A stretch of DNA of 64,000 nt from Candidatus Methanomethylophilaceae archaeon (GCA_944320495.1 CALUHR010000006.1:31275-95274), one strand, 5' to 3'. Shown: positions 25,847-55,438, counted from the stretch's first letter. Numbers and translations are program-made. The notes: generated from the letters alone by a model not told the origin.

Positions 25847-28609
25847 ATGGAATCCTCTGGAGAACGGGCCTCCAATCTGTCGGTGAGGGCGAGATCCCTT
25901 TGGGCGAAGGTCTCGAATCAGAGAGGTAGCTCCGATTGGCTATCGCTTCCAACCCACATGAGCGACTCATGTATGGTATGCAGGGAGATCTGGAATGATT
26001 GGGTCAGTCCGGCTGTGAAAAGCATCATTGTTCGTGGGATTAGCATGTCCGACGGTTCCGATGCTTCTTTGGAAACGGCAGAGGGATTGGCATTGTTTCT
26101 TGCCGCCGCTCACGATCTTGGCAAAGCGTCCCCCGCGTTCCAATGTAGGATCATACCATCCAATCTTGATATTCAGGAGGAATGTCGTCAGAGGCTGGCA
26201 GGTTCAGGTCTTGAATTGAATCTAAATCTAAGCCAGTCTCATTCCCCGAAGCACGCTATCATCTCGGAGATGATCCTTGAGAGGAATGGAATCGACCGTA
26301 CCATTGGTGTGGTTCTAGGAGGGCATCATGGTAAGCCGCCGGGTTTTGCGGATCTCGAGAATCTCAGCGCTTACAGCGGACACACGGGATCGAAATCGAA
26401 GTCATGGGTAGAGGTGCAGGACGAGCTCCTGGTTTTCGCATGCCAGCTGTCATCATTCGATCTCGGGATGGTGCGCCAAATAAGACTGGATCTCCAATCG
26501 CAGGCTGTACTGACAGGTCTCGTGATAATGTCCGATTGGATGGCCAGCGATGAGACTCTCTTCCCCTATTCGGAGGATGGGATCGGACAGTCGACATCCG
26601 AGCGCATCGGGGAGGCATGGGCCAGCATAGGTATCAGGAGATGGGATGCGGAAGACGAATGGTCGTCATATGACCTCTACGAGGGAAGGTTCGGATTCAC
26701 GGCCAGGCCATTCCAGAGAGCAGTGGCGGATGTCGCAGCCAATGTCTTCGGACCATGTATGATTGTGATCGAGGCACCGATGGGTGAAGGTAAGACAGAA
26801 GCTGCCCTGGTGGCCGCAGAGACGCTGGCGAGCAGATTCGGGGATGGGGGAGTGGTATTTGCGCTGCCTACACAAGCCACCGCTGACGGGATATTCAAGA
26901 GATTCCTGGATTGGGCAGAGAAGGCGTCCCCTGGTTTCGATCGTCATTCGATATTCCTCGCTCATGGGAAATCCAGATTCAACAATCAGTTCAACAGGCT
27001 CAGATCTTCAAATATGAGGGTCGGGGGCGAAGATGGCAACTTGGTGTCAGGCAACATCGTAGCCATGGATTGGTTCAGCGGTCGCAAGAAGGGGCTGTTG
27101 TCCGATTTCGTCGTAGGGACTGTTGATCAGGTTCTAATGGCTGGTCTTAAGCAGAGGCATCTGGCCTTGAGGCATCTGGCCTTGTCAGGCAAGGTCGTGG
27201 TGATTGACGAATGTCATGCTTATGATGCTTACATGGGCAGTTATCTCTCACTCGTGCTGCGTTGGCTGGGGTCTTACAGAGTGCCCGTCATACTGATGTC
27301 TGCCACTCTTCCCTCGGGGACCCGTAGGATGCTCATGGAGTCCTACTCCAACAGTAGCGTCGATCAAACCGAAGAGGATTCCATGGCGTATCCGAGGATT
27401 TCCGTAGTGGATGGAAACGAGACATCCTATGTATTTCCCGGTTCTTCATCAAGAAGGTATGATGTCAGAATCGAGCGCGTCACGGATTCGGAGATGATGG
27501 ACAAGCTGCATGCATTTCTGCAGAACGGGGGATGTGCCGGTGTTATAGTCAATACCGTTGCCCGTGCACAGGGATTCTACGAGAAACTGAAGTCAGAATA
27601 CCCAGATGATCGTGTAATTCTCATCCATTCTGCGTTCACCGGAACCGATCGTTCGGTCATAGAGTCGGATGTCATGGATGCTCTGCATGAGGCCCACAAC
27701 ACTCAGCAGACGAGGACGATCGTTGTCGGGACACAAGTGTTGGAGCAATCCCTGGACATTGACTTCGATTTGCTGGTCAGCGACATTTGTCCCATGGATC
27801 TGCTGATCCAGCGTATCGGACGTCTGCACAGGCATGACAACCCGCGTTCCTCCAAGATGGCCGAAGCGACATGTCTGGTCCTCGACACAGATAGTGAGGA
27901 ATTCGAGAAGGGTTCGGAGGCCGTCTACGGCAGATTCCATCTGATGAATGCCCGTCTGCTCCTTCCGGAATCCCTGAACATACCGGACGATATCCCGAGG
28001 TTGGTCGAATCCGCTTACGATCCATCCGGGATCCCATGGGGGACGGAAGTCTTCGAGGATTATCTCGATGCCAAAAGGGATGATAGTGACCTGATATCAA
28101 TCGAGAGGAGGAAGGCAAGGGCTTTCCAGATCTGTCGTCCGGACAGGTCTCCGGAAGGCGATGGCAGTCTGGTGGGATGGCTAGAGATGGCCCTGTCGGA
28201 CAAAACCGAAAGAATGGCGGAATGCACAGTCAGGGATGCAGATCCGTCGGTGGAGGTCATCCTGGTATGTCGCGATCATGCGGGGAATTTCAGAACTTTG
28301 CCCTGGGTGGGGGAGACCGGAGGTTCGATCATACCTCCGGATTCCTGTCCGGATGTCGGATTGGCATACGAGATGGCAGGGTGCAAGATACGCCTGCCGG
28401 GCAGATTGACCCGCAGGTACAACATAGATGAGACTGTGAATAAACTAGAGTACATTATATAGCAAAACATCATACCTCAGGTGTGGCAGGAGTCCCATTG
28501 GCTCGCAGGGGAACTCTTCCTCCTGTTGGATGAGGACCTGACGGTGACGTTCGAGGGGCTCAGGATGAGGTACGACAGGGAGTATGGAATGAGGGTTTGC
28601 GATGATCGA
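25847..28609 (+). CDS. cas3: Type I-E Cas3 (HD nuclease-helicase); in-frame TAG at 28460-28462; ends at CGA 28607-28609
   Basis: HD motif (AHDLGK), APMGEGKTE, DECH, QRIGRLHRH. A Cas3-like C-terminus (WQESHWLAGELFLLLD...YDREYG) continues in frame past the TAG. Confidence 0.9.
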
Positions 28610-30152
28610 GAAAGAATTCAACCTGATCCGCGAGAAGTGGATACCGGTGATGAAAGAGGATGGGACGATCGAGGAGGTGGGTCTGGAGGATGTGCTGGTC
28701 CATGCCCACGAGTATCTCCGCATATCGAGTGAACTTCCTACCTTGGACTATGCTCTGATGAGGCTTCTGATGGCAACGGCCTATGCCGCCAACCGCGGAT
28801 GGCTGGATGGGATCGATGATGTGGGGTCCGCCACATCATCATGGAAGCAGGTCATGGATGCCGGCAGATTCGACGAGTCCGCCATCAGAGGATATCTGGA
28901 TAGGTACGAGGACAGGTTCTACCTGTTCCATCCGACGCGTCCATTCTACCAGGCCCCGATCGACAAAGGGACGGAGTACTCCGCAGCCAAGCTGATAGGG
29001 ACGCTTTCCGAGAGTTCCAACAAACCGAGGTTCTTCCAGATGGTGAGCGGTGTTGCCAAGGAGAGCATAAGCTATCCGGAGGCGGCCAGATGGCTACTCC
29101 ATGTAATCGCCTATGATGATACCTCGGCCAAGCCGACCGTTCCAAAATCCGGGCTCCCATCGCCAGGTGCGGGATGGGTTGGCAAGATCGGGCCAGTGTA
29201 TTTCGCAGGGGACAACCTCTTCCAGACGCTGCTCCTGAACATGCCGTTCTACAATATGATCCTGAACGAGCCGTTCACTGATGGCGTGGCAACGTGGGAA
29301 CCAGAGGTCGCGAACGTCACAGAACGCAGGGAGATCCCCCTGCCGGGAAGCCCCATCGAACTTCTGACCATCCAGTCCAGAAGGATACTCCTGAAGAGGA
29401 ACGGGGAGAGAGTCACAGGATTCCTTCTGCTCGGCGGGGACTTCTTCCAGAAGGAGAACGCGTTCATCGAACAGATGACGGCTTGGCATCGCACCAAGGA
29501 GGGAGGATGGGTGCCGTCGAGGCACGATCCTGCCCGGTTCATCTGGCGTGATTTCAATCCGCTCCTCTTGGAGCGTGATGAGGACAACAACCCTGGCGTG
29601 GTGAAGTGGGTGTCCCGTCTGGCGAGCCGTGGAATCATAGCGAAGGGCAATGTCAGGCTGACCACCACTGCCGTGACCTATGGCGACAAGGATTTCGTAG
29701 CAACGGGTGTGGTAAACGATGCCCTGTCGCTGAATTCCCAGATTCTCTCCGATCTCGGCAGGAACTGGAGGGTCCGCATCTCGGATTCCCTCGACTCCAC
29801 TGATCAATGTGTCATGGCATTCGGGAGATTCGTACAGAACCTGGCCGTGGCCGAAGGGGAGGATGAGAAGTCATTGGACCTGCCGAAGTTGCGTTCCGTG
29901 GCCATGGAGCAGGCTTACTTCAGACTCGACAAACCGTTCAGGGTCTGGCTCTCAGCCATCGATCCCGATTCGGATTCAGAAGACGACAGGATCGCCGAGT
30001 GGGAGCGTCAGATGCGCTCCCTGCTCTTCTCCATGGCCGATGACATGGTGAACGGATGCAGTATCAAGGCGATCACTGGTCGCGATATGGAGAGGAACGC
30101 ATTCAGCAGACTTCAGTTCTTCAAAAACACGGTCAACAAGATCCTGAGGTGA
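28602..30152 (+). CDS. cse1: Type I-E large subunit Cas8e/Cse1
   Basis: FNLIREKWIPV, RFYLFHPTRPFYQ, position after cas3. Confidence 0.88.
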   Translation: MIEKEFNLIREKWIPVMKEDGTIEEVGLEDVLVHAHEYLRISSELPTLDYALMRLLMATAYAANRGWLDGIDDVGSATSSWKQVMDAGRFDESAIRGYLDRYEDRFYLFHPTRPFYQAPIDKGTEYSAAKLIGTLSESSNKPRFFQMVSGVAKESISYPEAARWLLHVIAYDDTSAKPTVPKSGLPSPGAGWVGKIGPVYFAGDNLFQTLLLNMPFYNMILNEPFTDGVATWEPEVANVTERREIPLPGSPIELLTIQSRRILLKRNGERVTGFLLLGGDFFQKENAFIEQMTAWHRTKEGGWVPSRHDPARFIWRDFNPLLLERDEDNNPGVVKWVSRLASRGIIAKGNVRLTTTAVTYGDKDFVATGVVNDALSLNSQILSDLGRNWRVRISDSLDSTDQCVMAFGRFVQNLAVAEGEDEKSLDLPKLRSVAMEQAYFRLDKPFRVWLSAIDPDSDSEDDRIAEWERQMRSLLFSMADDMVNGCSIKAITGRDMERNAFSRLQFFKNTVNKILR

Positions 30153-30157
30153 ATGAT

Positions 30158-30757
30158 ATGTATGATACTGCAGACGCAGTCCACAGATTCGTGAAGGGGA
30201 GGATAGCCGTCCTGCAGACGGACGATCCTCAGAACAAGGCGAGGCTCGCCGTCCTCAGGCGCGGTCTCGGAAAGGACCCTGCGGATTCCGCGGAGGTCTG
30301 GTCGATAACCATGGAAGGCATCCCAGATGAGCTTACCGCTAAGGGCAGCGGCATCATCCAGGCCACCGATGCGGAATGGGCCATCCATACTGCCCTCACA
30401 CTCTACGCGCTGCACAGGCAGGGCTCGAATGCCCAGATGAGTACATCCGAACGCTCTTTCGCATCGGCCATCCGTCTTCTCACGGACCCGTCCGATGAGT
30501 CAGGCGGACCCGTGAAGAAGCGCTTCGATGCGCTGGTGACCTCGGAGAGCATCACGGAGGTCGCCAATCATGCGCGCAGGATCGTGCAGCTTCTCAAGGC
30601 GTCGGACAGGCCCATAGCATTCGACTATCCAGCCCTTGCACGCGATATCTATCTCTATGGGATGCCGGGCGGCAGGCGCGCCGTACGTCTCAGATGGGGC
30701 CAGGACTATTTCAGGGCAGAGAAAGCAGACAGGAATGAGGAGAACAAGGAGGAATGA
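30158..30757 (+). CDS. cse2: Type I-E small subunit Cas11/Cse2
   Basis: LAVLRRGLGK, AIHTALTLYALH, FDYPALARD, RWGQDYF. Confidence 0.88.
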   Translation: MYDTADAVHRFVKGRIAVLQTDDPQNKARLAVLRRGLGKDPADSAEVWSITMEGIPDELTAKGSGIIQATDAEWAIHTALTLYALHRQGSNAQMSTSERSFASAIRLLTDPSDESGGPVKKRFDALVTSESITEVANHARRIVQLLKASDRPIAFDYPALARDIYLYGMPGGRRAVRLRWGQDYFRAEKADRNEENKEE

Positions 30758-31860
30758 AAATGGGAAACAACAAGAGAATGTACATAGACATACATGTGAT
30801 TCAGACGATTCCGCCCAGCTGCGTGAACCGCGATGACACAGGCAGCCCGAAGACGTGCACATATGGGGGCACCAACCGTTCGAGGGTGTCGTCCCAGAGC
30901 TGGAAGAGGGCTGTCAGGGAGTATTTCAAAGGAACAGTTGATGAAGGGGAGCTCGGAACCAGGACGAAGAAGATTGTCGAGCTCGTGTACGAGGAGATAG
31001 TCAGGCAGGACCCTTCTATCCCCGAGGCAAATGCACAGAAGATGGCCGTGGACGTCCTGACTGCAGCCGGCATCCAGATTGCGAAGAAGAAGGGCAAGGA
31101 TGACGATGGGGATGATGTCCCGGAGGCCAAGGCTCTGTTCTTCATGAGCAGGAAGCAGGCGGAGAACGTAGCCGCTCTCGCGATTGCAGGGGGTTACGAC
31201 AAGAAGAAGGCCCAGGCCGCCCTAAACGCCGGTACCGGCATCGACATAGCCCTCTTCGGTCGCATGGTGGCCGATGATCCTAGCATGAACGCTGATGCCT
31301 CGGCGCAGGTGGCACACGCCATCTCCACCCATCGTGTCACGAACGAGTTCGACTACTACACGGCGGTGGACGAGAGATCCCCTGCCGACAATCCCGGTGC
31401 AGGGATGATCGGTACCATCGAGTTCAATTCGTCGACGATGTACCGCTATGCCACGGTGGCCGTCCATGATCTCGAGAGGCAGCTGTCAGATGACCCATCG
31501 GTAACTGCCATCGCCGTGAGGGAGTTCGTCAGGGCGTTCATACTGTCCATGCCCACCGGAAAGATGAACACGTTCGCCAACAGGACGATCCCCGAGTACG
31601 TGCTAATCGAGCTCCGCGATGATCAGCCGGTCAACTGCGCCGCGGCCTTCGAGACCCCGGTTCAGCCTGGAAGGGACAAGGGCGGATACTCGGAGAACTC
31701 CGTCAAGGCTCTAGAATCATATGTCTATTCGATACGTAGCTTCGTTCCGCCGGCAATCAGGGAATGGCGTATCAGCGGAGGCGTGGACACGGATGCAGAG
31801 ACCGTCAGTCTCCAGGCGGCCCTTGATCAGATCGTGTCAGCGATCTCCGAGGAGCAGTGA
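30754..31860 (+). CDS. cas7: Type I-E Cas7
   Basis: IHVIQTIPPSCVNRDDTGSPK, DIALFGRMVA, EFDYYTAVD. Confidence 0.93.
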   Translation: MKMGNNKRMYIDIHVIQTIPPSCVNRDDTGSPKTCTYGGTNRSRVSSQSWKRAVREYFKGTVDEGELGTRTKKIVELVYEEIVRQDPSIPEANAQKMAVDVLTAAGIQIAKKKGKDDDGDDVPEAKALFFMSRKQAENVAALAIAGGYDKKKAQAALNAGTGIDIALFGRMVADDPSMNADASAQVAHAISTHRVTNEFDYYTAVDERSPADNPGAGMIGTIEFNSSTMYRYATVAVHDLERQLSDDPSVTAIAVREFVRAFILSMPTGKMNTFANRTIPEYVLIELRDDQPVNCAAAFETPVQPGRDKGGYSENSVKALESYVYSIRSFVPPAIREWRISGGVDTDAETVSLQAALDQIVSAISEEQ

Positions 31861-31861
31861 G

Positions 31862-32575
31862 ATGCCTACCGTGCTGCTGAGGCTGGCCGCGCCCATGCAG
31901 TCATGGGGTGTGGACAGTGTATACAACACGAGATCCTCGGGCGTGATGCCATCTAAGAGTGCCGTGATAGGGCTTGTGGCCTCCGCCATGGGGCGCTCGA
32001 GGCGTGATGTGCTGGACGATCTCAGCGACCTCAGGTTCGGTGTCAGGGCGGATCAGCCCGGAAGGATGATGAGGGATTACCAAACGGTCGGGAATCCGAA
32101 GAAGGACGAGGTCATGTTCACCATCGACCGTTACTATCTGTCGGACGCCATATTCCTGGCAGGTCTGGAAGGGGATGCGGGCATCGTAGGGGACATAGAC
32201 GCAGCTCTAAAGAGCCCCATGTTCCCGCCGTTCCTCGGCAGGCGCTCATGTCCTCCCACCCAGCCTCTGTCGTTGGGCGTCCGTGATTTCGGATTGACAG
32301 AGGCGCTGTCACAGGAGGGGTGGCAGGCATCCGCATGGTACAGACGCAAGTCCCTGCCGAAGGTCAGCCTGGAGGCGGTCATGGATTCCGATGCCGAAGG
32401 GGCGGATTCCATGGTGCGCGATGTGCCGGAATCGTTCGATCCCAGGCGTCGCGAGTACGGATACCGCCAGGTGCGTCATGTTCTCGATTTCGTATCGTTC
32501 GATAATCCGGACAGTCGCAGAAAACCGATCGTCACGGATCACGACCCCATTTCAGTGATCAGGGGGTCCAGCCGA
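31862..32575 (+). CDS. cas5: Type I-E Cas5; ends at CGA 32573-32575 in a CGATG overlap with cas6e
   Basis: LLRLAAPMQSWG, PSKSAVIGL, FLGRRSCPP; standard-code ORF ends at 32629. Confidence 0.92.
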
Positions 32576-33225
32576 TGTATCTCTCTCGTGTGGAGGTCAA
32601 TCCGCGCAGACGCAGCACCCTGTCGATGATGGAGTCCCAGCAGCGCATGCACGCCGCGGTCATGGCCAGCTTCCCATCCTTCGGTCCGGGGGAGACTGAC
32701 AGGGTGTTGTGGAGGGTGGACCATCTCGGTCCATCGACCTACTTCCTCGTCCAGAGCTCCAGGAAACCGGACTTCAGCCATATGGTGGACCAGTACGGAT
32801 GGCCCGAGTCGGAACAGGGGTGGGACGTCCTGGAGTATGACGGATTCCTGTCACGCATCGAGAGCGGACAGGAATGGAGGTTCCGCCTAACGGCCAATCC
32901 CGTCCACAGCGTCCACACAGGCGGCAGCCGCGGGAAGGTGATGCCACATGTCACGGTATCGCAGCAGAAGGGTTGGTTGCAGGGCCGTGCAGCTTCATGC
33001 GGTTTCGAGATCGCCGGCTCGCCTCAGGGCGAACCGGCATTCGATATCGTGGAGAGGCATATCCGCAAGTTCGACAGGAACGGTTCCCTCGTAACGATAA
33101 GCATGGTGACGTTCGAGGGAACACTGAGGGTCACGGATGCGGATCTGCTGAGGAATGCGATGACATCCGGAATCGGCAGGGCGAAGGCCTACGGTTGCGG
33201 CTTGCTTACGCTGGCAGGACTATGA
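32575..33225 (+). CDS. cas6e: Type I-E Cas6e
   Basis: MYLSRV, FRLTANP, GIGRAKAYGCGLL. Confidence 0.93.
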   Translation: MYLSRVEVNPRRRSTLSMMESQQRMHAAVMASFPSFGPGETDRVLWRVDHLGPSTYFLVQSSRKPDFSHMVDQYGWPESEQGWDVLEYDGFLSRIESGQEWRFRLTANPVHSVHTGGSRGKVMPHVTVSQQKGWLQGRAASCGFEIAGSPQGEPAFDIVERHIRKFDRNGSLVTISMVTFEGTLRVTDADLLRNAMTSGIGRAKAYGCGLLTLAGL

Positions 33226-34166
33226 CCAAGGTCCCGGGTGCGGATAGGCCGGACATCCAGGAGCTGCCGAGGATTCGTGACCGCATATCGTTCCTGTATC
33301 TGAGCCATTGCAAGGTCAACCGCTCGGACAGCGCGATATCGGTCACGGATTCGAGAGGGGTCGCCTGCATCCCGGTCGCCACCATCGGGGCGATCCTTCT
33401 CGGACCCGGAACAACCATTACCCATCGCGCGATGGAGCTGCTCGGGGATGCCGGGGCCTCGGTGCTGTGGGTCGGGGATGACGGTGTCAGGTACTACGCA
33501 CACGGTAGGCCCCTGACCCATTCCTCGTCCCTGTTGATGAAGCAGGCAGCGGCTGCGACCAACACAAGGTCGCGCATAGACGTGGCCCGCAGGATGTATG
33601 GGATGCGCTTCCCGGGGGAGGACGTGTCTCGTCTGACCATGCAGCAACTCCGCGGCAGGGAGGGTTCCAGGATCAGGTCCGCGTATGCCAGAGCATCGAG
33701 GGAGACCGGAGTGGAATGGTCTGGGAGGGATTACGACCCATCCGACTTCACAGCCAGCGATCCCGTGAACCAGTCGTTGACCGTGGCGAACTCATGTCTG
33801 TACGGGGCCGCACACAGCGTCATAGTGGCTATGGGGTGTTCGCCTGGTCTCGGATTCATTCACTGCGGTCACGAGCGTTCTTTCGTCTATGATGTCGCCG
33901 ATCTCTACAAGGCGGAAATCTGCATACCTCTCGCATTCCGTTTAGCATCCGAGGGTTGTGCCGACATTTCGTCAGCGACCAGACATGCTATGAGGGACGC
34001 CATCCGCAGGAACCACGTAATGGAGAGGATGGTGCGGGATATACGTTATCTTCTCGATGCCGACGATCCAGACCAGGAGGTGAACGTGCTCTATCTGTGG
34101 GACGATGACGGAGGAACCGTGACCAGCGGCGTCTCGTACACGGAGTTCGGGGAGGACGACGGATGA
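33222..34166 (+). CDS. cas1: Type I-E Cas1
   Basis: RISFLYL, LLGPGTTITH, SFVYDVADLYK. Confidence 0.95.
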   Translation: MTKVPGADRPDIQELPRIRDRISFLYLSHCKVNRSDSAISVTDSRGVACIPVATIGAILLGPGTTITHRAMELLGDAGASVLWVGDDGVRYYAHGRPLTHSSSLLMKQAAAATNTRSRIDVARRMYGMRFPGEDVSRLTMQQLRGREGSRIRSAYARASRETGVEWSGRDYDPSDFTASDPVNQSLTVANSCLYGAAHSVIVAMGCSPGLGFIHCGHERSFVYDVADLYKAEICIPLAFRLASEGCADISSATRHAMRDAIRRNHVMERMVRDIRYLLDADDPDQEVNVLYLWDDDGGTVTSGVSYTEFGEDDG

Positions 34167-34919
34167 TAGTGGTGGTCCTCTCCTGCTGTCCTCCTTCGCT
34201 ACGCGGGGATCTCACGAAATGGCTCTTCGAGATCAGCACCGGGGTGTATGTCGGCCATATCGCCGCCCGTGTCCGCGATTCGCTCTGGGAGCGCATAGTT
34301 TCCAGCGTTGGTTCCGGAAGGGCGATCATGGCGTTCTCGGCAGATAACGATCAGAAGTTCGATATCCGCGTCCACAACACGGAATGGGGTCTCGAGGAGA
34401 TTGATGGGATCAAGGTGATGATGCGCCAGGGGGTCGGAGACACGATGAGAGGCGGGTTCAGCAACGCCAGCCGCATGCGCAGAGCGATGAATCCCAAAAC
34501 GGACAGGCAGGACTCCTGTTACACCGCAGTTCATGTAGGCTACAGCTCCCCCTCCCTCGAGATCGGACGCATCACAGAGGTGGATTTTACGACCGTCCGC
34601 AACGGACGCATCGTGGAAAGGGGACAATGGAGGGAGGGACAGTCCGATGTTCTGCTCAAGGAATCGCTGGATGCGATCTCGCGGTCGGAGAGGGTGGTCA
34701 TGTATCGTGCGGGGAGGCAGGTGCAGTTCCTTGCAGGATCAGTCAACACACGTCCTGGATCGGGAACGTGTAACGGATGTGTCCGAGTTGGTGAAGGGGA
34801 GACTACATAATCTCGGGGATACAGGTCTGGAATCCGTGTGCAGGAATCTTGGTATAGATCCAGATGAGAGGTCCTGTAGCGGTTCGATAGTCCGGATTTA
34901 TGAATCATTGCATAAACGA
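34163..34919 (+). CDS. cas2: Type I-E Cas2 fused to a degenerate, frameshifted DnaQ/DEDDh-like domain
   Basis: LRGDLTKWLFEISTGVYVG (Cas2), then GFSNASRMRR linker. The DnaQ-like tail continues in another frame after about 34730 and reaches CGA at 34917-34919. Confidence 0.8.
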
Positions 34920-35025: not shown

Positions 35026-35662
<637 letters not shown>

Positions 35663-35836: not shown

Positions 35837-35972
35837 AGAAGAGCCTAAATAGTGTCCATTCATCCACGTTTCACCGTCAGAGGTCATCAAGATGATCTGC
35901 AACGTTCACACCCCGCTTCTGCTCCTTCTGCAGTGAATAGTGTGAGCTAAAGACGGGTTTGAGGTGTTGAAA

Positions 35973-37562
35973 ATGGAATCTCAGACCAGTGATAACGCTA
36001 GCAAGCGTGCGATGTTGGCAGTCAGCCCCTACAACCAGGTCGCCCTGCCGAAGCTGCCTGAGGGTCGCGGACCGATCCAGATATTCGACACCACGCTCCG
36101 CGACGGCGAGCAGGCTCCGGGCATCGCACTCAGCGCCGAGGAGAAGGTACGCATAGCCGCGGCCCTCAACGACCTCGGCGTGGACTACATCGAGGCGGGA
36201 TTCGCAGTCTCGTCCGACATCGAACGCAAGACCATCAGGGAGATCGTTGACGCTGGTCCGCATGCGACGGTCGTCAGCCTCGCCAGGTCCGTGCGCAAGG
36301 ACATCGACGCCGCCGTGGAGACAGGGGTCCCGTGCATCCACACGTTCATCGGCACGAGCCCCCTCCATAGGGAATACAAGCTCAAGATGACCAAGGAGGA
36401 GATTGTCGAGAGGGCCGTCGACACCGTCGAGTATGCCCGTTCAAGAGGGGTGGATGTGCAGTTCTCCTGCGAGGACGCGACCCGCACCGAGCTCGACTAC
36501 CTCCTCGAGGTCTACAAGGCGGTCGTTGATGCCGGTGCTTGCGCCATCAACGTCCCCGATACCGTAGGCGTCATCGTGCCCCAGGGCATGAGCTATCTCA
36601 TCGGCGAGATCGCCAAGGTCATCAAGGTCCCGATCTCCGTCCACTGCCACAACGACATGGGTCTCGCGGTCGCCAACAGCATCGCCGCCGTGGAGGCGGG
36701 AGCGACAATCTGTCAGGCCACCATCAATGGCATCGGCGAGAGGACCGGCAACGCGTCCCTCGAGGAGATCGCGGTCAACCTCTTCGCCAACTACAACGTT
36801 GAGACCATTGACCTCTCCAAGATCGGACCCGTCTGCAGGACCGTGGAGCGCATCACAGGGTTCCCTGTCGCGTACAACAAGCCGATCAGCGGCCGCAACG
36901 CCTTCGCCCACGAGTCCGGTATCCACGTCCACGGGGTGATGGCCAACTCGGCCACCTACGAGCCGTTCCTTCCGGAGCTCGTCGGCGTGGACAGGCACAT
37001 CGTCATCGGCAAGCACTCCGGAGAGCACTCCGTCCGCGGAAGGCTCGATGCGCTCGGCATCAAGATGCCTGAGGAGCGCATGCCCGAGCTCATGGCCGCC
37101 ATCAAGGAGGCCGCCATCGGCGACAAGGAGATCGACGACGCGGAGCTCAGGGCCATCGTCGACCATATCCTCTACAGCTCCGTCATAGGTGACCCCGCCG
37201 TCATCCTGGATGGCGTCGCCGTCATGACCGGAAAGGGGATCACCAGCACGGCGACCGTCAACCTCAGGGTCAAGGGAGAGTCCCGCAGCGTCGCGGAGGT
37301 CGGCGTCGGACCCGTGGATGCGGCCATGAGGGCGATCGCCGAGGCCGTCGGCGGTGGGTACACCCTCGGGGAGTACAAGCTCGCCGCGATCAACGGGCTC
37401 TCGGACTCGCTCTGCGAGGCCACGGTCATGGTCCGCAACGCGGAGCGTGAAGGCACCGGACTCGTGGTCGGGAAGGCCGTCGGTACCGATGTGGTCCAGA
37501 CTTCCATCGATGCGATGATCTCGGCCATAAACCGCGACTTCGCCAGATATGACAATCAGTGA
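35973..37562 (+). CDS. leuA: 2-isopropylmalate synthase (LeuA/CimA family)
   Basis: FDTTLRDGEQ, HCHNDMG, GIGERTGNA, FAHESGIH, regulatory domain GVGPVDA. Confidence 0.9.
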   Translation: MESQTSDNASKRAMLAVSPYNQVALPKLPEGRGPIQIFDTTLRDGEQAPGIALSAEEKVRIAAALNDLGVDYIEAGFAVSSDIERKTIREIVDAGPHATVVSLARSVRKDIDAAVETGVPCIHTFIGTSPLHREYKLKMTKEEIVERAVDTVEYARSRGVDVQFSCEDATRTELDYLLEVYKAVVDAGACAINVPDTVGVIVPQGMSYLIGEIAKVIKVPISVHCHNDMGLAVANSIAAVEAGATICQATINGIGERTGNASLEEIAVNLFANYNVETIDLSKIGPVCRTVERITGFPVAYNKPISGRNAFAHESGIHVHGVMANSATYEPFLPELVGVDRHIVIGKHSGEHSVRGRLDALGIKMPEERMPELMAAIKEAAIGDKEIDDAELRAIVDHILYSSVIGDPAVILDGVAVMTGKGITSTATVNLRVKGESRSVAEVGVGPVDAAMRAIAEAVGGGYTLGEYKLAAINGLSDSLCEATVMVRNAEREGTGLVVGKAVGTDVVQTSIDAMISAINRDFARYDNQ

Positions 37563-48491: not shown

Positions 48492-50225
48492 TCACATCCT
48501 CCACTTATCCGGGTCCTGCGATCCGGTCTGTCTGGTCATCATGTCGGTGGTGCGCATCCCGGGGGCGTACTCATACGGGGCTGACGGGATGCTCGGTCCG
48601 GGCAATGGCACATGGAGGGCCTCGTAGATCCTACGATGTGCAGGGGATATGTCGCTGATCCTCCAGGTCGATTCGTCTCCGATCGCCATCACCGTGTCCA
48701 GTATCTGCATGGCTGTGGATACGGGCATCTCTATGCCAGATTCGGAGAGGCGCTTCGTGCACAGGCTCCACAGCGTCAGTGCGCAGAATTTCACCGCCAT
48801 GCTCTCCATTATGGAGGGCGTCCTCCCGTTGACCGTCCCGGTGGTCAGGTTGGTCTGCATGACGTTCAGCTCCTTCTGGAAGATGCCGCGGCATCTCGCG
48901 CATCTCATCATGTCGCTCCAGCTCCTCACGCCGTGGGACATGACCACGAATATGCCTTCGCGGTTGAGTGCGGCGGACACGCCCTTCTGTCTAACCTTGA
49001 TCTCGAGCTCCCCTTCGACGACCCTCATATCCAGATATCTGCTGAACTCCCCTGCGATGTCCCTGACCCTGTCGACCGCGTCGTACGGGTCCATGGATCT
49101 GAGCTGATCCTCTATGTCGGCGAGCCGGCGGGACATCCTCTCGCGCCCATCGTCTGAGCCCGAACCGTATTCCAGGCAAGCCCATGCCGATATGCGCAGA
49201 TCCAGGGGGACCGAGAAGAAGCGCTGGTCGGTCGGGAGTATGATCTCGAACTCCGGAGTCTCGTTGTCCTCCTCACGACAATCGATCCTGCGTTGGATCT
49301 TGCGGGGTACGATGGCAACCTCCGAATCGTAGCCCACGTACGTCTTCCCGTCGAAGTGCCTGATCGAGCTCTGGTCGGTCCTGTTCTTGACCACCTGGCT
49401 CATCATGTTCTTGACGAAGGGGGTCCTCCTCAGGGCAGGGATGGCGTAGTCCATATCGACGCATCTGGACAGGTTGTCCGCATGTCCGGAGTCGGATTCC
49501 AGGATGACTACGCATCTGGGGCACCCGTTGTCGATCATCCACCTGTGGATCTCCATCATCCTGGATCTCGGAAGGCGGATGTCGTACGTGGGTTCCATGA
49601 ACAGGGGCGCACCATCCCCGTCGGTCACGATGCAGAAGCGATGCTCCGGGGATGTGCCAGATCCCTGATTTATCCAGTCGTTGGATATGTCCGGGTCCGG
49701 GTCGTAGGTCTTTTCGAAAACATATGCCTCGGATGTGCGGGCGATGCGGTTCCTGTAGAGCGCCTGTATTGAGTCGGCATCCTCGCAGGCCCTTTCGGTG
49801 GTGTTCAGGACGTCATCGGTCGTCTATGTGCCGCCCATGCCGAGAAGCTCCCTGACCATGTTGGTGTCTATCTCCGGTTCGAGGAAGTACATGGGTCCGC
49901 CTGTCAGTATGACCGATATGGCGGTCGCGAGTATGCAGTCCCCGTCGCGGCCGAATGCCGAATGGAGGTCCTCGCGCAGCCTGCAGGATTCGGACAGGGA
50001 GACCAGCGCATGGCTGGCACCGTAGCTTCTGACGACTCCGTTGTTGGGGATGATCTGGACGGGCTTGGCCCTGGACTTCTTCTTTATGATGTCCCCTGTG
50101 TCCGGGTCTATCTTGCCGATGTATTCCGTGACGGTGCGCTTACGGTGGGTCTTGGCGTCGTAGACGGAGGTGCTCCTGTACACATACTGCCTCCCGTCCT
50201 TCTCGACTATGAAATTCTCCGCCAA
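48492..50225 (-). mobile_element. IS1634-like transposase-derived gene with in-frame TAG at 49824-49826
   Basis: N-terminus YVYRSTSVYD...EYIGKID typical of IS1634 transposases. ORF pieces 49824-50225 and 48492-49628 are in one frame, separated only by the TAG. Confidence 0.7.
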
Positions 50226-50379: not shown

Positions 50380-51783
50380 ATGGCAGAGGAGTACTTCACA
50401 AGGATGGGCGACGGTCGCCGCATATTCATGACACGCCAGTGCATCATGGACGACATCCACGATGGCGTATACGATGCAGTGGACGCCGCGGGCGTCCCGG
50501 CCCTCTCCGAGGACGACATGGAGTACATCTGCGACGTCATCTGCATGAAGAGCAGGATCGTCGGCGTGGAGCCCGGCGATGAGGCCGTCCTCTCGAACGA
50601 CGGAGGGCAGCTCAAGATAACCCAGGACAGCGGCGGATCGGGCGTCGGGATCGACATGAGCCGTCTCGAGGCCATCCTCATGCACGAGCGCGGTTTCGCC
50701 CATGACTCATTCGAACTTGGATGGACCGACTACTCGATCAAGGCGATCAAACCGATCATCGCCAACGAGATGCAGGCCATAGAGCAGTTCAACCTGACGA
50801 CGACAATCCCGCTCCTCTATGGTGCGATGCCCAACATGGGTGCATATTACGCTCCGGACGGTCCATACGGGAACCCCACGGACCTGATGAGGAACTTCAA
50901 GATAGAGGAGGCGAAGGAGCAGGCTGAGAGGGCGACCGAACATGTCGCTCGCGACATAACCTACGTGACGACCCTCCTGGATTCCGCTGGATGCGAGGGG
51001 TTCAACCTCGATACGGTGGGATCCGCCGGGGACGGGGACTTCGTCGCGGCCCTCCGCGGATGCGAGGCGTACCGCAAGGCCTGCCCCAACGCCTACATCA
51101 ACATCGGGATGTCGTCAGAGACGGTCCTCGGGATCCACGGATCCCTGGAGTACGACGGGAAGGTTGTCGCAGGGATGTATCCCCACGACCAGGTGAAGAT
51201 GGCCGCCAAGGCCGGAGCGAACGTCTTCGGGGTGTCGGTTAACACCAACACCTCCATGAGCTACGCATGGAACGTCGCCCGCGCCGCATGCATGATCAAG
51301 GAGTGCGTCAGGCAGTCCCCGATACCGGTGCATGCCGATCTGGGTATGGGCGTCGGCGGGGTTCCGATGCACGAGACCCCTCCTGTGGACGCGACATCCC
51401 GCAGCACCAAGATAATGTCGGAGCTGGCGCACGTCGACGGCATATAGGTCGGGGTCGGGGACCCCATCGGCATGGCCGCCACCCACTCCCTCGCTGGAGG
51501 GATGGGCGGGATGAGGGCCGCCGGGGACCTCGTCGCCAGGATGATGTTCGGCAGGAGCATGAAGCTGAGGGATGCCAAGGAGTACGTGGCGAAGAAGCTG
51601 GGCGTGACCACTCTGGACCTCGTGGATGTGAATGTCATGAGGGAGCTCCGCGAGGAGCTGGGCCTCGGGACCATAACCGCCCTGCCCGGCACCCCCAAGG
51701 GGATGCCGGCCAAGCTCAACATCGAGAAGCTCCTGGATGTGACCATCAACAGCTGCGAGCACTACAGGTCTCTCCTGAACTGA
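50380..51783 (+). CDS. mtbB: Dimethylamine:corrinoid methyltransferase, Pyl at codon 356 (TAG 51445-51447)
   Basis: YFTRMGDG start; VDGI-TAG-VGVGDP; the frame continues to a MtbB-like end ([15 protein letters not shown]). Confidence 0.95.
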
Positions 51784-54031: not shown

Positions 54032-55438
54032 TCACTTCTTGAGCTGGTTCCTGTAGTGCTCGCAGTTGCTGATCGTGATTCCGAGGACCTTCTCGATGTT
54101 CATCTTGGCGGGGAGTCCCTTGGGGCTGTTGGGCTGGCCGGTGACGACTCCGAGGCCCTCCTTGTCCCTGATGTCCCTGATGAAGTTCTCCTCGGTGAGC
54201 TGGAACGGGTCGATCTCGAGCTTGTCGGCGACGTACTTCTTGGCGGCGTCGATCTTCATGTTCTTGGCGAACTGCATCCTGCAGACCAGATCGCCGGTGG
54301 TCCTCATTCCGCCCATTCCGGAGCAGAGGCCGTGGGCAACCGCCATGGAGGCGATGTCCCCGGATCCGACCTATATTCCGTCGATGTTGGCGATCTCGAT
54401 GAGGATCTTCGCGGCCCTCCCGGTGATGTCGGTGGGAGGAAGCTCGCACATCGGGATTCCGCCGACACCCATTCCCATGTTGGCGTGGACGGGGATGTTG
54501 GCGACCTTGACGCATTCCTTGGTGATGACGGCGGAGCGGGCGGCGTTCCAGGCGAAGCTCTTGGAGGTGTTGGTGTTGACGACGGATCCGAAGATGTTGA
54601 CTCCGGCCTTCTCGCACAGCTTGACCTGCTCGTGGGGGTACATTCCGGCGACGACCTTGCCGTCGTACTCCATCCCGCCGTGGATTCCCAGGACGGTCTC
54701 CGCGGACATTCCGCACTCGATGTAGGCGTTGGGGTTGGACTTCCTGTAGTTCTCCATTCCCTTCAGGGTGGCGACGAACTCGGCGTCTCCGGCGGAGGCG
54801 ACGGTGTCGAAGTTGAATCCCTCGCAGCCGACCTTGTCGATCTCCTGGCAGACGTATCCGATGTCCCTGGTGAGGTGCTCGGCGGCAGCCTCGGAGGCGG
54901 CCATGGACTCCTCGATCTTGAACTCCCTCATGAGGTCGGTGGGGTTCGCGTAGGGTCCGTCGGGGGCGTAGTAGAGACCCATGTTGGGCATGGCTCCCAT
55001 GACGAGAGGCAGGGTGGTCAGCATGGCCATCTGCTCGTAGTTGGAGGTCTCGCAGTTGATGACGGCCTTCACGGGCTTGATGGAGTAGTCCATCCAGGCG
55101 AGCTCCATGGAGTCGAAGGTGAGGGACCTCTCGTAGACGAGGAGACCCTCGAGCCTGCCCATGCAGGGGATGGCGTTCCCGCTTCCGCCGTTGTCCTGGT
55201 TGAATTTGATGGCACCGGCGTCCTTGGAGAGGCAGACCTCCCTTCCGGGCTCGATGCTGGTGATCTTGCTCTTGTCGCAGACGATCTCGTAGATGCGCTC
55301 CATCTCGTCCTGGGAGAGCTCAGGGACCTGGGCGGCGTCGGCACCGTCAGCCATACCAGCGACGATGTCGGACATGATCTGCTCCTTGGTCATCCTGACC
55401 CTTCTGCCGTCTCCCATCCTCGTTATGTAGTCTTCCAT
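54032..55438 (-). CDS. mtbB: Second dimethylamine methyltransferase, Pyl at codon 356 (TAG 54371-54373)
   Basis: MEDYITRMGDG; IDGI-TAG-VGSGD; in frame with 54032-54346. Confidence 0.95.

Follow-up and report, generated by a model that had tools for sequence, protein, structure and literature searches.

A polymorphic in-frame amber codon in a type I-E cas3 of a Methanomethylophilaceae archaeon and its probable decoding as pyrrolysine

Amber codons in CRISPR-associated genes are already on record for the order Methanomassiliicoccales, in both Cas3 and Cas1. The Cas3 gene of the methanogenic archaeon ISO4-H5 (AR505_1089) was reported in 2016 to carry an in-frame amber codon, as one of 46 amber-containing genes (PMC5011839), and pyrrolysine (Pyl) was predicted in 2014 in Cas1 of ‘Ca. 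Methanomethylophilus alvus’ (PMC4153887), where it was seen by targeted proteomics according to the preprint on ‘Genetic Code 34’ (bioRxiv 10.1101/2024.09.30.615893). The same preprint states that Pyl had earlier been predicted in Cas1 and Cas3, and adds Cas2, Cas4, Cas8e and Cas10 to these. The present analysis concerns a type I-E cas3 gene with a TAG at codon 872, located in a stretch of 64,000 nucleotides (nt) from Candidatus Methanomethylophilaceae archaeon (GCA_944320495.1 CALUHR010000006.1:31275-95274), hereafter the window, in which positions are counted from the first letter. This TAG is probably a near-neutral substitution of lysine by Pyl in a genome that appears to decode TAG as Pyl throughout. 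With amber codons in Cas3 and Cas1 of the order already published, what is new is the Lys/Pyl polymorphism of the site and its consequences for annotation.

Among the described systems, ISO4-H5, which is likened to the window here by its amber codon alone, belongs to the same order, has a cas3 interrupted only by TAG and carries a pyl gene cluster in its genome; it differs in that the window site is polymorphic and the window gene ends in CGA, whereas the ISO4-H5 paper gives no population data. Cas1 of M. alvus is likewise a CRISPR-associated protein of the same methanogen family with Pyl at an in-frame TAG, and the published interpretation is that amber mutations became fixed under constitutive suppression. 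It is, however, a different protein of a different CRISPR type, and for Cas1 there is evidence at the protein level, whereas the window Cas3 is known from sequence alone. Some Pyl archaea, to which the preprint assigns Genetic Code 34, have many TAGs in conserved genes and hardly any TAG-dependent gene end, as does the genome of the window, whose genus is not among the genera named in the preprint's passage on this code. In the terms of the preprint, the window cas3 under standard stops would belong to Category 4, with a 131-nt out-of-frame overlap after read-through that is removed only by letting the gene end at CGA. The type I-E Cas3 proteins of T. terrenum (4Q2C) and T. fusca (4QQW / 6C66), which come from the same operon type, share the fold over the whole length (TM 0.72-0.81) at 25-29% identity, but contain no recoded codon. 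Outside this lineage, Thg1 of Methanosarcina acetivorans, in work attributed to Heinemann et al. of 2009, is said to have gained Pyl by neutral evolution, likewise at a position that is not essential, in a protein other than a methyltransferase; the lineage and the protein are different, and TAG there is reportedly still used also as a stop.

The amber codon in cas3 and its variation among strains

From the ATG at position 25847, cas3 runs through 871 sense codons to the TAG, beyond which the frame continues. An in-frame amber at this place had been claimed in the initial annotation, and the peptide quoted there for the segment after it, QNIIPQVWQESHW...YDREYGMRV, agrees exactly with the translation of this frame. 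The HD domain is found at the N-terminus (PF18019, residues 19-239, E = 1.3e-39), and the SF2 helicase core is matched by the Pfam families DEAD (PF00270) and Cas3-like_C_2 (PF22590), its conserved residues being invariant in a 42-sequence alignment. The Cas3_C domain (PF18395, 107 positions) extends over both sides of the TAG, since residues 796-868, before it, correspond to profile positions 1-65, and the piece after it matches positions 69-107 with E = 2.6e-9 on its own. A single domain is thus split in frame by one TAG, far beyond what chance would produce, and it is complete, up to the normal C-terminus of the family, only when the TAG is read through. The length then obtained is that of the 920-amino acid (aa) relative P0002. 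Neither cas3 nor any of its seven neighbouring cas genes carries a further disabling mutation, in the window or in the related loci L031-L033.

The AlphaFold2 model built from the 42-sequence alignment has a predicted local distance difference test (pLDDT) score of 85 and a predicted template modelling (pTM) score of 0.86, and Foldseek relates it to 4Q2C (E = 2e-52, TM 0.81) and to 4QQW (TM 0.76-0.78), with a match that spans the whole length. In this model residue 872 is the final residue of a helix (860-872). The part beyond it, residues 873-920, folds into a short helix (878-882) and four strands (891-917), with pLDDT values of 78-94. A protein that stopped at the TAG would lack, on this model, roughly 40% of the C-terminal domain, whereas read-through would place Pyl at the end of the helix, beside a one-residue indel of the family alignment.

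The site is variable among closely related strains. The 90%-identity cluster around the window Cas3 has 16 members of 829 to 1037 aa, drawn from ENA and Logan assemblies together with the NCBI call for the contig, and the DNA of eleven places (L031-L041) was aligned with the window gene. At codons 872-873 the window has TAG CAA, and TAG CAG is found in L031 (ERZ16268284) and L032 (ERZ16268088), which represent a different allele with a synonymous divergence of 0.29 from the window over the gene; four more cluster members stop at the same residue as L031. In L033 (ENA ERZ16268295, scaffold_8228), nearly identical to L031 elsewhere, the two codons are AAA TAG. Lysine is encoded by AAA CAG in L034, L039 and L040 and by AAG CAG in L035-L038, and L041, a 77%-identical relative, has AGA ATG. 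The alignment with related metagenome-assembled genomes (MAGs), which the initial annotation had proposed as a check, hence yields a TAG common to the window, L031 and L032, with Lys in the other strains and Arg in the more distant relative. The TAG is not private to one strain, as it is present in two diverged alleles and in independent assemblies of other samples. Given Lys in the sister strains and Arg in the relative, the ancestral state at codon 872 is a basic residue; AAG is converted to TAG by one transversion, and the TAG at codon 873 of L033 is one step from CAG. Around codons 872-873 the haplotype of L033 is similar to that of L034/L039, and this points to a short tract of recombination at the site.

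The codons after the TAG appear to be maintained. Over 43 of them (873-915), the two TAG-872 alleles differ by 5 synonymous and 2 non-synonymous substitutions, which gives a pN/pS of 0.10, compared with 0.13 over the 829 codons that precede the TAG (for the post-TAG codons, Fisher p = 0.004 versus equal rates). The segment seems, from these differences, to behave as a translated sequence under purifying selection. A private nonsense mutation that inactivates Cas3, considered at the outset as the alternative to read-through, does not agree with a TAG shared by at least two diverged alleles, with the selection on the downstream codons or with the intact state of the rest of the operon.

In-frame TAGs are also recurrent in the family. 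A survey of 201 genomes of the order Methanomassiliicoccales gave 15 full-length Cas3 orthologues (42-51% identity), and in-frame stops are present in five of these, the window's copy counted, every one of them TAG and none TGA or TAA. One TAG, close to the HD domain's N-terminus, stands in a column common to two species of one genus. About 870 intact codons come after it, an arrangement that is difficult to explain unless the TAG is translated. Two in-frame TAGs each are present in the orthologues L017 and L019, the latter from the window's own genus. All the orthologue TAGs lie in variable columns between conserved blocks. At the column of the window site no other orthologue has a TAG, the residues there being R, M, L, S, Q, K, H, T and V. 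PylS is encoded in all four other genomes with an interrupted cas3, as well as in G056, which has a partial Cas3 match with a TAG. With L033 included, seven independent stop events are all TAG (p about 5e-4 under equal use of the three stops). In a control set obtained by an alignment-based search and consisting mostly of bacterial Cas3 genes (a single-protein query gave no matches), any in-frame stop was seen in 2 of 76 bacterial orthologues.

TAG and CGA across the genome

The assembly of the window's genome comprises 1.77 Mb in 14 contigs, with 61% G+C, and is 90.6% complete. It encodes a contiguous pylT-pylS-pylC-pylD cluster, with scores of 261 bits for pylS (TIGR02367), 302 bits for pylC and 182 bits for pylD. 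The tRNA with anticodon CTA, immediately upstream of pylS, was undetected by ARAGORN with default settings and by Rfam, and was detected by ARAGORN at the relaxed threshold -ps95. The arrangement is the one known from M. alvus, where pylB sits 0.7 Mb away (PMC3941956).

Within or between full-length Pfam domains, TAG is found in two mtbB and two mtmB genes, in TatD, in an SF1 helicase and in an aldo-keto-reductase/ferredoxin gene. Open reading frames (ORFs) were delimited with an iterated codon-usage model in which TGA, TAA and CGA are terminators, and which took the place of longest-ORF stop counts contaminated by antisense ORFs at this G+C content; it gives 1676 ORFs, with TGA as the last codon of 1198, CGA of 424 and TAA of 54. 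TAG is required to terminate hardly any confident gene, and the few TAGs that lie close to a gene end are followed by a further terminator 0-20 codons on. The same pattern has been published, with proteomic support, as genome-wide reading of TAG as Pyl under the name of Genetic Code 34, and it fits M. alvus, in which TAG stops are very rare (1.6%; PMC4153887). Two more ORFs with coding potential on either side of a single in-frame TAG, but with no clear Pfam family, were noted at 48492-50222 of the window (- strand) and at L044 (C13:128295-129665).

The 3' end of cas3 involves a second unusual codon. The gene had been described as ending at a CGA 8 nt into cse1, and this description holds: the CGA occupies the position of a TGA codon in L034 and L041. 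The junction codon is TGA in most orthologues too, and CGA in the window, L031-L033, L035-L039, L010, L015 and L016. With the standard code the cas3 frame has no stop after ...GMRVCDD and continues to a TGA at 28730-28732, overlapping cse1 out of frame by 131 nt. The 63 Arg codons of cas3 include no in-frame CGA before the end, and in-frame CGA is also absent from cse1, cas7, cas6e and cas1. Genome-wide, an in-frame CGA occurs in 263 of 1393 confident ORFs, with a concentration in their final 30 codons, and the mean coding score, +0.64 ahead of the first CGA, drops to -0.42 beyond it, while AGG, used as control, shows no drop. Internal CGA is absent from the Cas3 orthologues of the window's genus and of its sister genus, several of which have CGA as their last codon, whereas those of three more distant genera have 2-6 internal CGA codons and end in TGA. 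The occurrence of CGA at stop positions is a trait limited to the lineage. Taken together, CGA behaves as a gene end in this genome, and the CGA at the cas3/cse1 junction is the sensible end of cas3, with a predicted product of 920 residues. It was also considered whether this CGA is a lost stop, which would give the protein a 44-residue out-of-frame tail (longer in the Lys alleles) and make the TAG a compensating stop; this possibility was rejected because there is no other CGA in cas3, cas5 ends in CGATG and the coding potential collapses genome-wide after the first CGA. A tRNA with anticodon TCG is nevertheless present in the genome (C13:413317-413390).

A probable near-neutral substitution and its alternatives

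The most probable explanation is that Pyl-tRNA(CUA) decodes UAG throughout the genome of this methanogen (Methanomethylophilaceae, Methanomassiliicoccales), so that Cas3 would be made at its full length with Pyl at residue 872. The site, which closes a helix in a part of the C-terminal domain that is variable, would have changed from Lys to Pyl by near-neutral drift. CRISPR interference would then depend on Pyl only trivially, in the same way as the other TAG-containing genes of the genome. The earlier proposal that full-length Cas3 is made only with Pyl-tRNA is retained in the sense that UAG decoding is required and that pylT, pylS, pylC and pylD are present; the idea of a dedicated switch has no support. 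The cas3 locus would represent a further case of the spread of Pyl into ordinary proteins of Methanomassiliicoccales, and the Lys/TAG polymorphism, together with the second TAG at the next codon, would provide direct population-level evidence that ambers drift into tolerant sites once UAG is a sense codon. There are also practical consequences. Standard annotation models neither the reading of TAG as Pyl nor the gene end at CGA. For this reason it cuts the Cas3 of TAG strains short, at 829 or 871 aa, and makes that of Lys strains too long, at 990-1037 aa, so that work assessing whether CRISPR systems are intact in these gut methanogens will wrongly class such loci as defective.

Some observations weigh against a near-neutral substitution under genome-wide decoding, or limit the evidence for it. 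The pylB gene (TIGR03910) was not found in any contig of the 90.6%-complete assembly; since 28 of 30 genomes of the genus do have it, its absence is probably an assembly gap. The translation of UAG as Pyl in this organism, and the efficiency of the process, are deduced from the genome, and competition by release factor may lead to some termination at UAG and thus to some truncated Cas3. The gene model is home-made and crude, and the result for TAG is less clean under the standard stop set than with CGA as an end. The selection test involves only 7 substitutions and presumes that they arose while the TAG was present, and recombination from Lys alleles could mimic the signal. Finally, the presence of two independent TAGs side by side, at codons 872 and 873, exceeds what simple drift would lead one to expect: by a rough estimate, about one cas3 codon in five is a single step from TAG, and the chance of adjacency is of the order of 1%. 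The simplest reason for this coincidence is a highly tolerant loop.

The recurrence at codons 872 and 873 within one population would also fit repeated selection for a stop, in which case UAG would mostly terminate, Cas3 would be an 871-residue protein lacking the final helix and four strands of its C-terminal domain, and interference would be lost or weakened, perhaps under selection because Cas3 activity is costly. Such a truncation allele, which is unlikely, agrees with the NCBI annotation of an 829-aa product ending at the TAG and with the oldest spacer of the array (spacer 9, beside the degenerate terminal repeat), which resembles the neighbouring leuA gene on the same strand in 27/33 bases. 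This match, however, has six mismatches, including spacer positions 2 and 4, with a BLAST E of 0.44 for its 29-nt core, and could be due to chance or be a decayed self-match. For spacers 1-8, no stretch longer than 18 nt is matched elsewhere in the genome. The leuA-like spacer invoked in the initial annotation is therefore there, but as a rationale for attenuated autoimmunity it is weak. Loss of function under selection would, moreover, be expected to yield all kinds of stops and frameshifts along the gene and not TAG alone, yet no other disabling mutation is present in the cas genes of the window or of L031-L033. It is also at odds with the purifying selection that persists in the codons after the TAG, and with the fact that elsewhere in the genome TAG is not needed as a terminator and sits inside other conserved domains. 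An error of a single base in sequencing or assembly, conceivable for a MAG of 14 contigs, can hardly explain the TAG, as the same codon is found in the independent assemblies of L031 and L032 and more cluster members end there.

Alternatively, the supply of Pyl-tRNA might tune the amount of full-length Cas3, so that immunity would follow methylamine metabolism, as the initial annotation had envisaged. Full-length Cas3 does formally require Pyl-tRNA, and the recurrence of TAG at 872/873 could mean that selection favoured a codon read slowly or leakily close to the 3' end; such conditional read-through is nonetheless quite improbable. A 106-nt segment 3' of the UAG folds at -38.4 kcal/mol, with z = -1.03 versus shuffles, so that a stem-loop similar to the pyrrolysine insertion sequence (PYLIS) is not significant here; Pyl is in any case inserted without the need for a PYLIS-type signal (PMC4153887). 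The sister strains have plain Lys codons, the TAGs of other Cas3 orthologues are at unrelated sites, and TAG behaves as a general sense codon of the genome (TatD, the helicase and others), where a shortage of Pyl would strike the other TAG-containing genes too. A low usage of TAG stops is taken in the literature as a sign of constitutive Pyl decoding (PMC4153887), and the Genetic Code 34 preprint (bioRxiv 10.1101/2024.09.30.615893) reports that a Cas1 peptide with Pyl was detected in M. alvi cells grown on methanol. The coupling of immunity to methylamines is accordingly not supported. A related possibility, to which very little probability is given, is that the TAG was selected, having arisen twice (872 and 873), and that, depending on the supply of Pyl-tRNA, a leaky or slow site controls how much Cas3 is full-length relative to truncated, or how cse1, 140 nt downstream, is translated; if this were true, CRISPR interference would be tied to the Pyl status of the cell.

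The surrounding cas operon and CRISPR array

Downstream of cas3 the type I-E set is complete (cse1-cse2-cas7-cas5-cas6e-cas1-cas2, followed by an array of I-E type), and its genes are without internal defects (Table 1).

Table 1. Positions of cas3, its neighbours and the TAG-related genes (window coordinates unless a contig is named)
Feature	Position	Strand	Remarks
type I-E cas3	25847..28609	+	920 sense codons including TAG codon 872; final triplet CGA at the relatives' TGA stop
in-frame TAG, codon 872 of cas3, probably read as Pyl	28460..28462	+	variable column in 15 orthologues
cas3 post-TAG segment	28463..28606	+	48 codons; modelled as last helix and four beta-strands of the C-terminal domain
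CGA at cas3 stop position	28607..28609	+	overlaps cse1 start (ATG 28602)
cse1 (cas8e)	28602..30152	+	516 aa; PF09481, E = 1.4e-95
cse2 (cas11)	30158..30757	+	199 aa; PF09485; start set to agree with 199-aa calls in relatives
cas7 (CT1975-like)	30754..31860	+	368 aa; PF09344, E = 1.7e-118
cas5	31862..32575	+	237 codons; PF09704; end = CGA 32573-32575 overlapping cas6e ATG (CGATG)
cas6e	32575..33225	+	216 aa; PF08798
cas1	33222..34166	+	314 aa; PF01867
cas2 ORF	34163..34810	+	215 codons; PF09707; Cas2 domain residues 1-84; in-frame CGA at codon 208
CRISPR array	35026..35602	+	9 identical 28-nt repeats and one degenerate terminal repeat; 33-nt spacers
spacer 9	35542..35574		resembles leuA 37439-37471
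leuA	35964..37562		adjacent to the array; HMGL-like and LeuA_dimer domains
mtbB with in-frame TAG	50380..51780	+	in the window
mtbB with in-frame TAG	54032..55432	-	in the window
pylT-pylS-pylC-pylD	contig 9, 65898-68755		contiguous

The cas2 ORF has an extension of roughly 120 residues beyond the Cas2 domain. Outside Methanomassiliicoccales, the closest Cas3 proteins are bacterial (Clostridia, Selenomonadaceae and Christensenellales; about 40% identity, L061-L138), which suggests that the I-E system may have been acquired from gut Firmicutes. The in-frame stops of the two interrupted bacterial orthologues are both TAG, one each in L073, from a Eubacteriales MAG (codon 300), and in L101, from Arthrobacter nanjingensis (codon 849).

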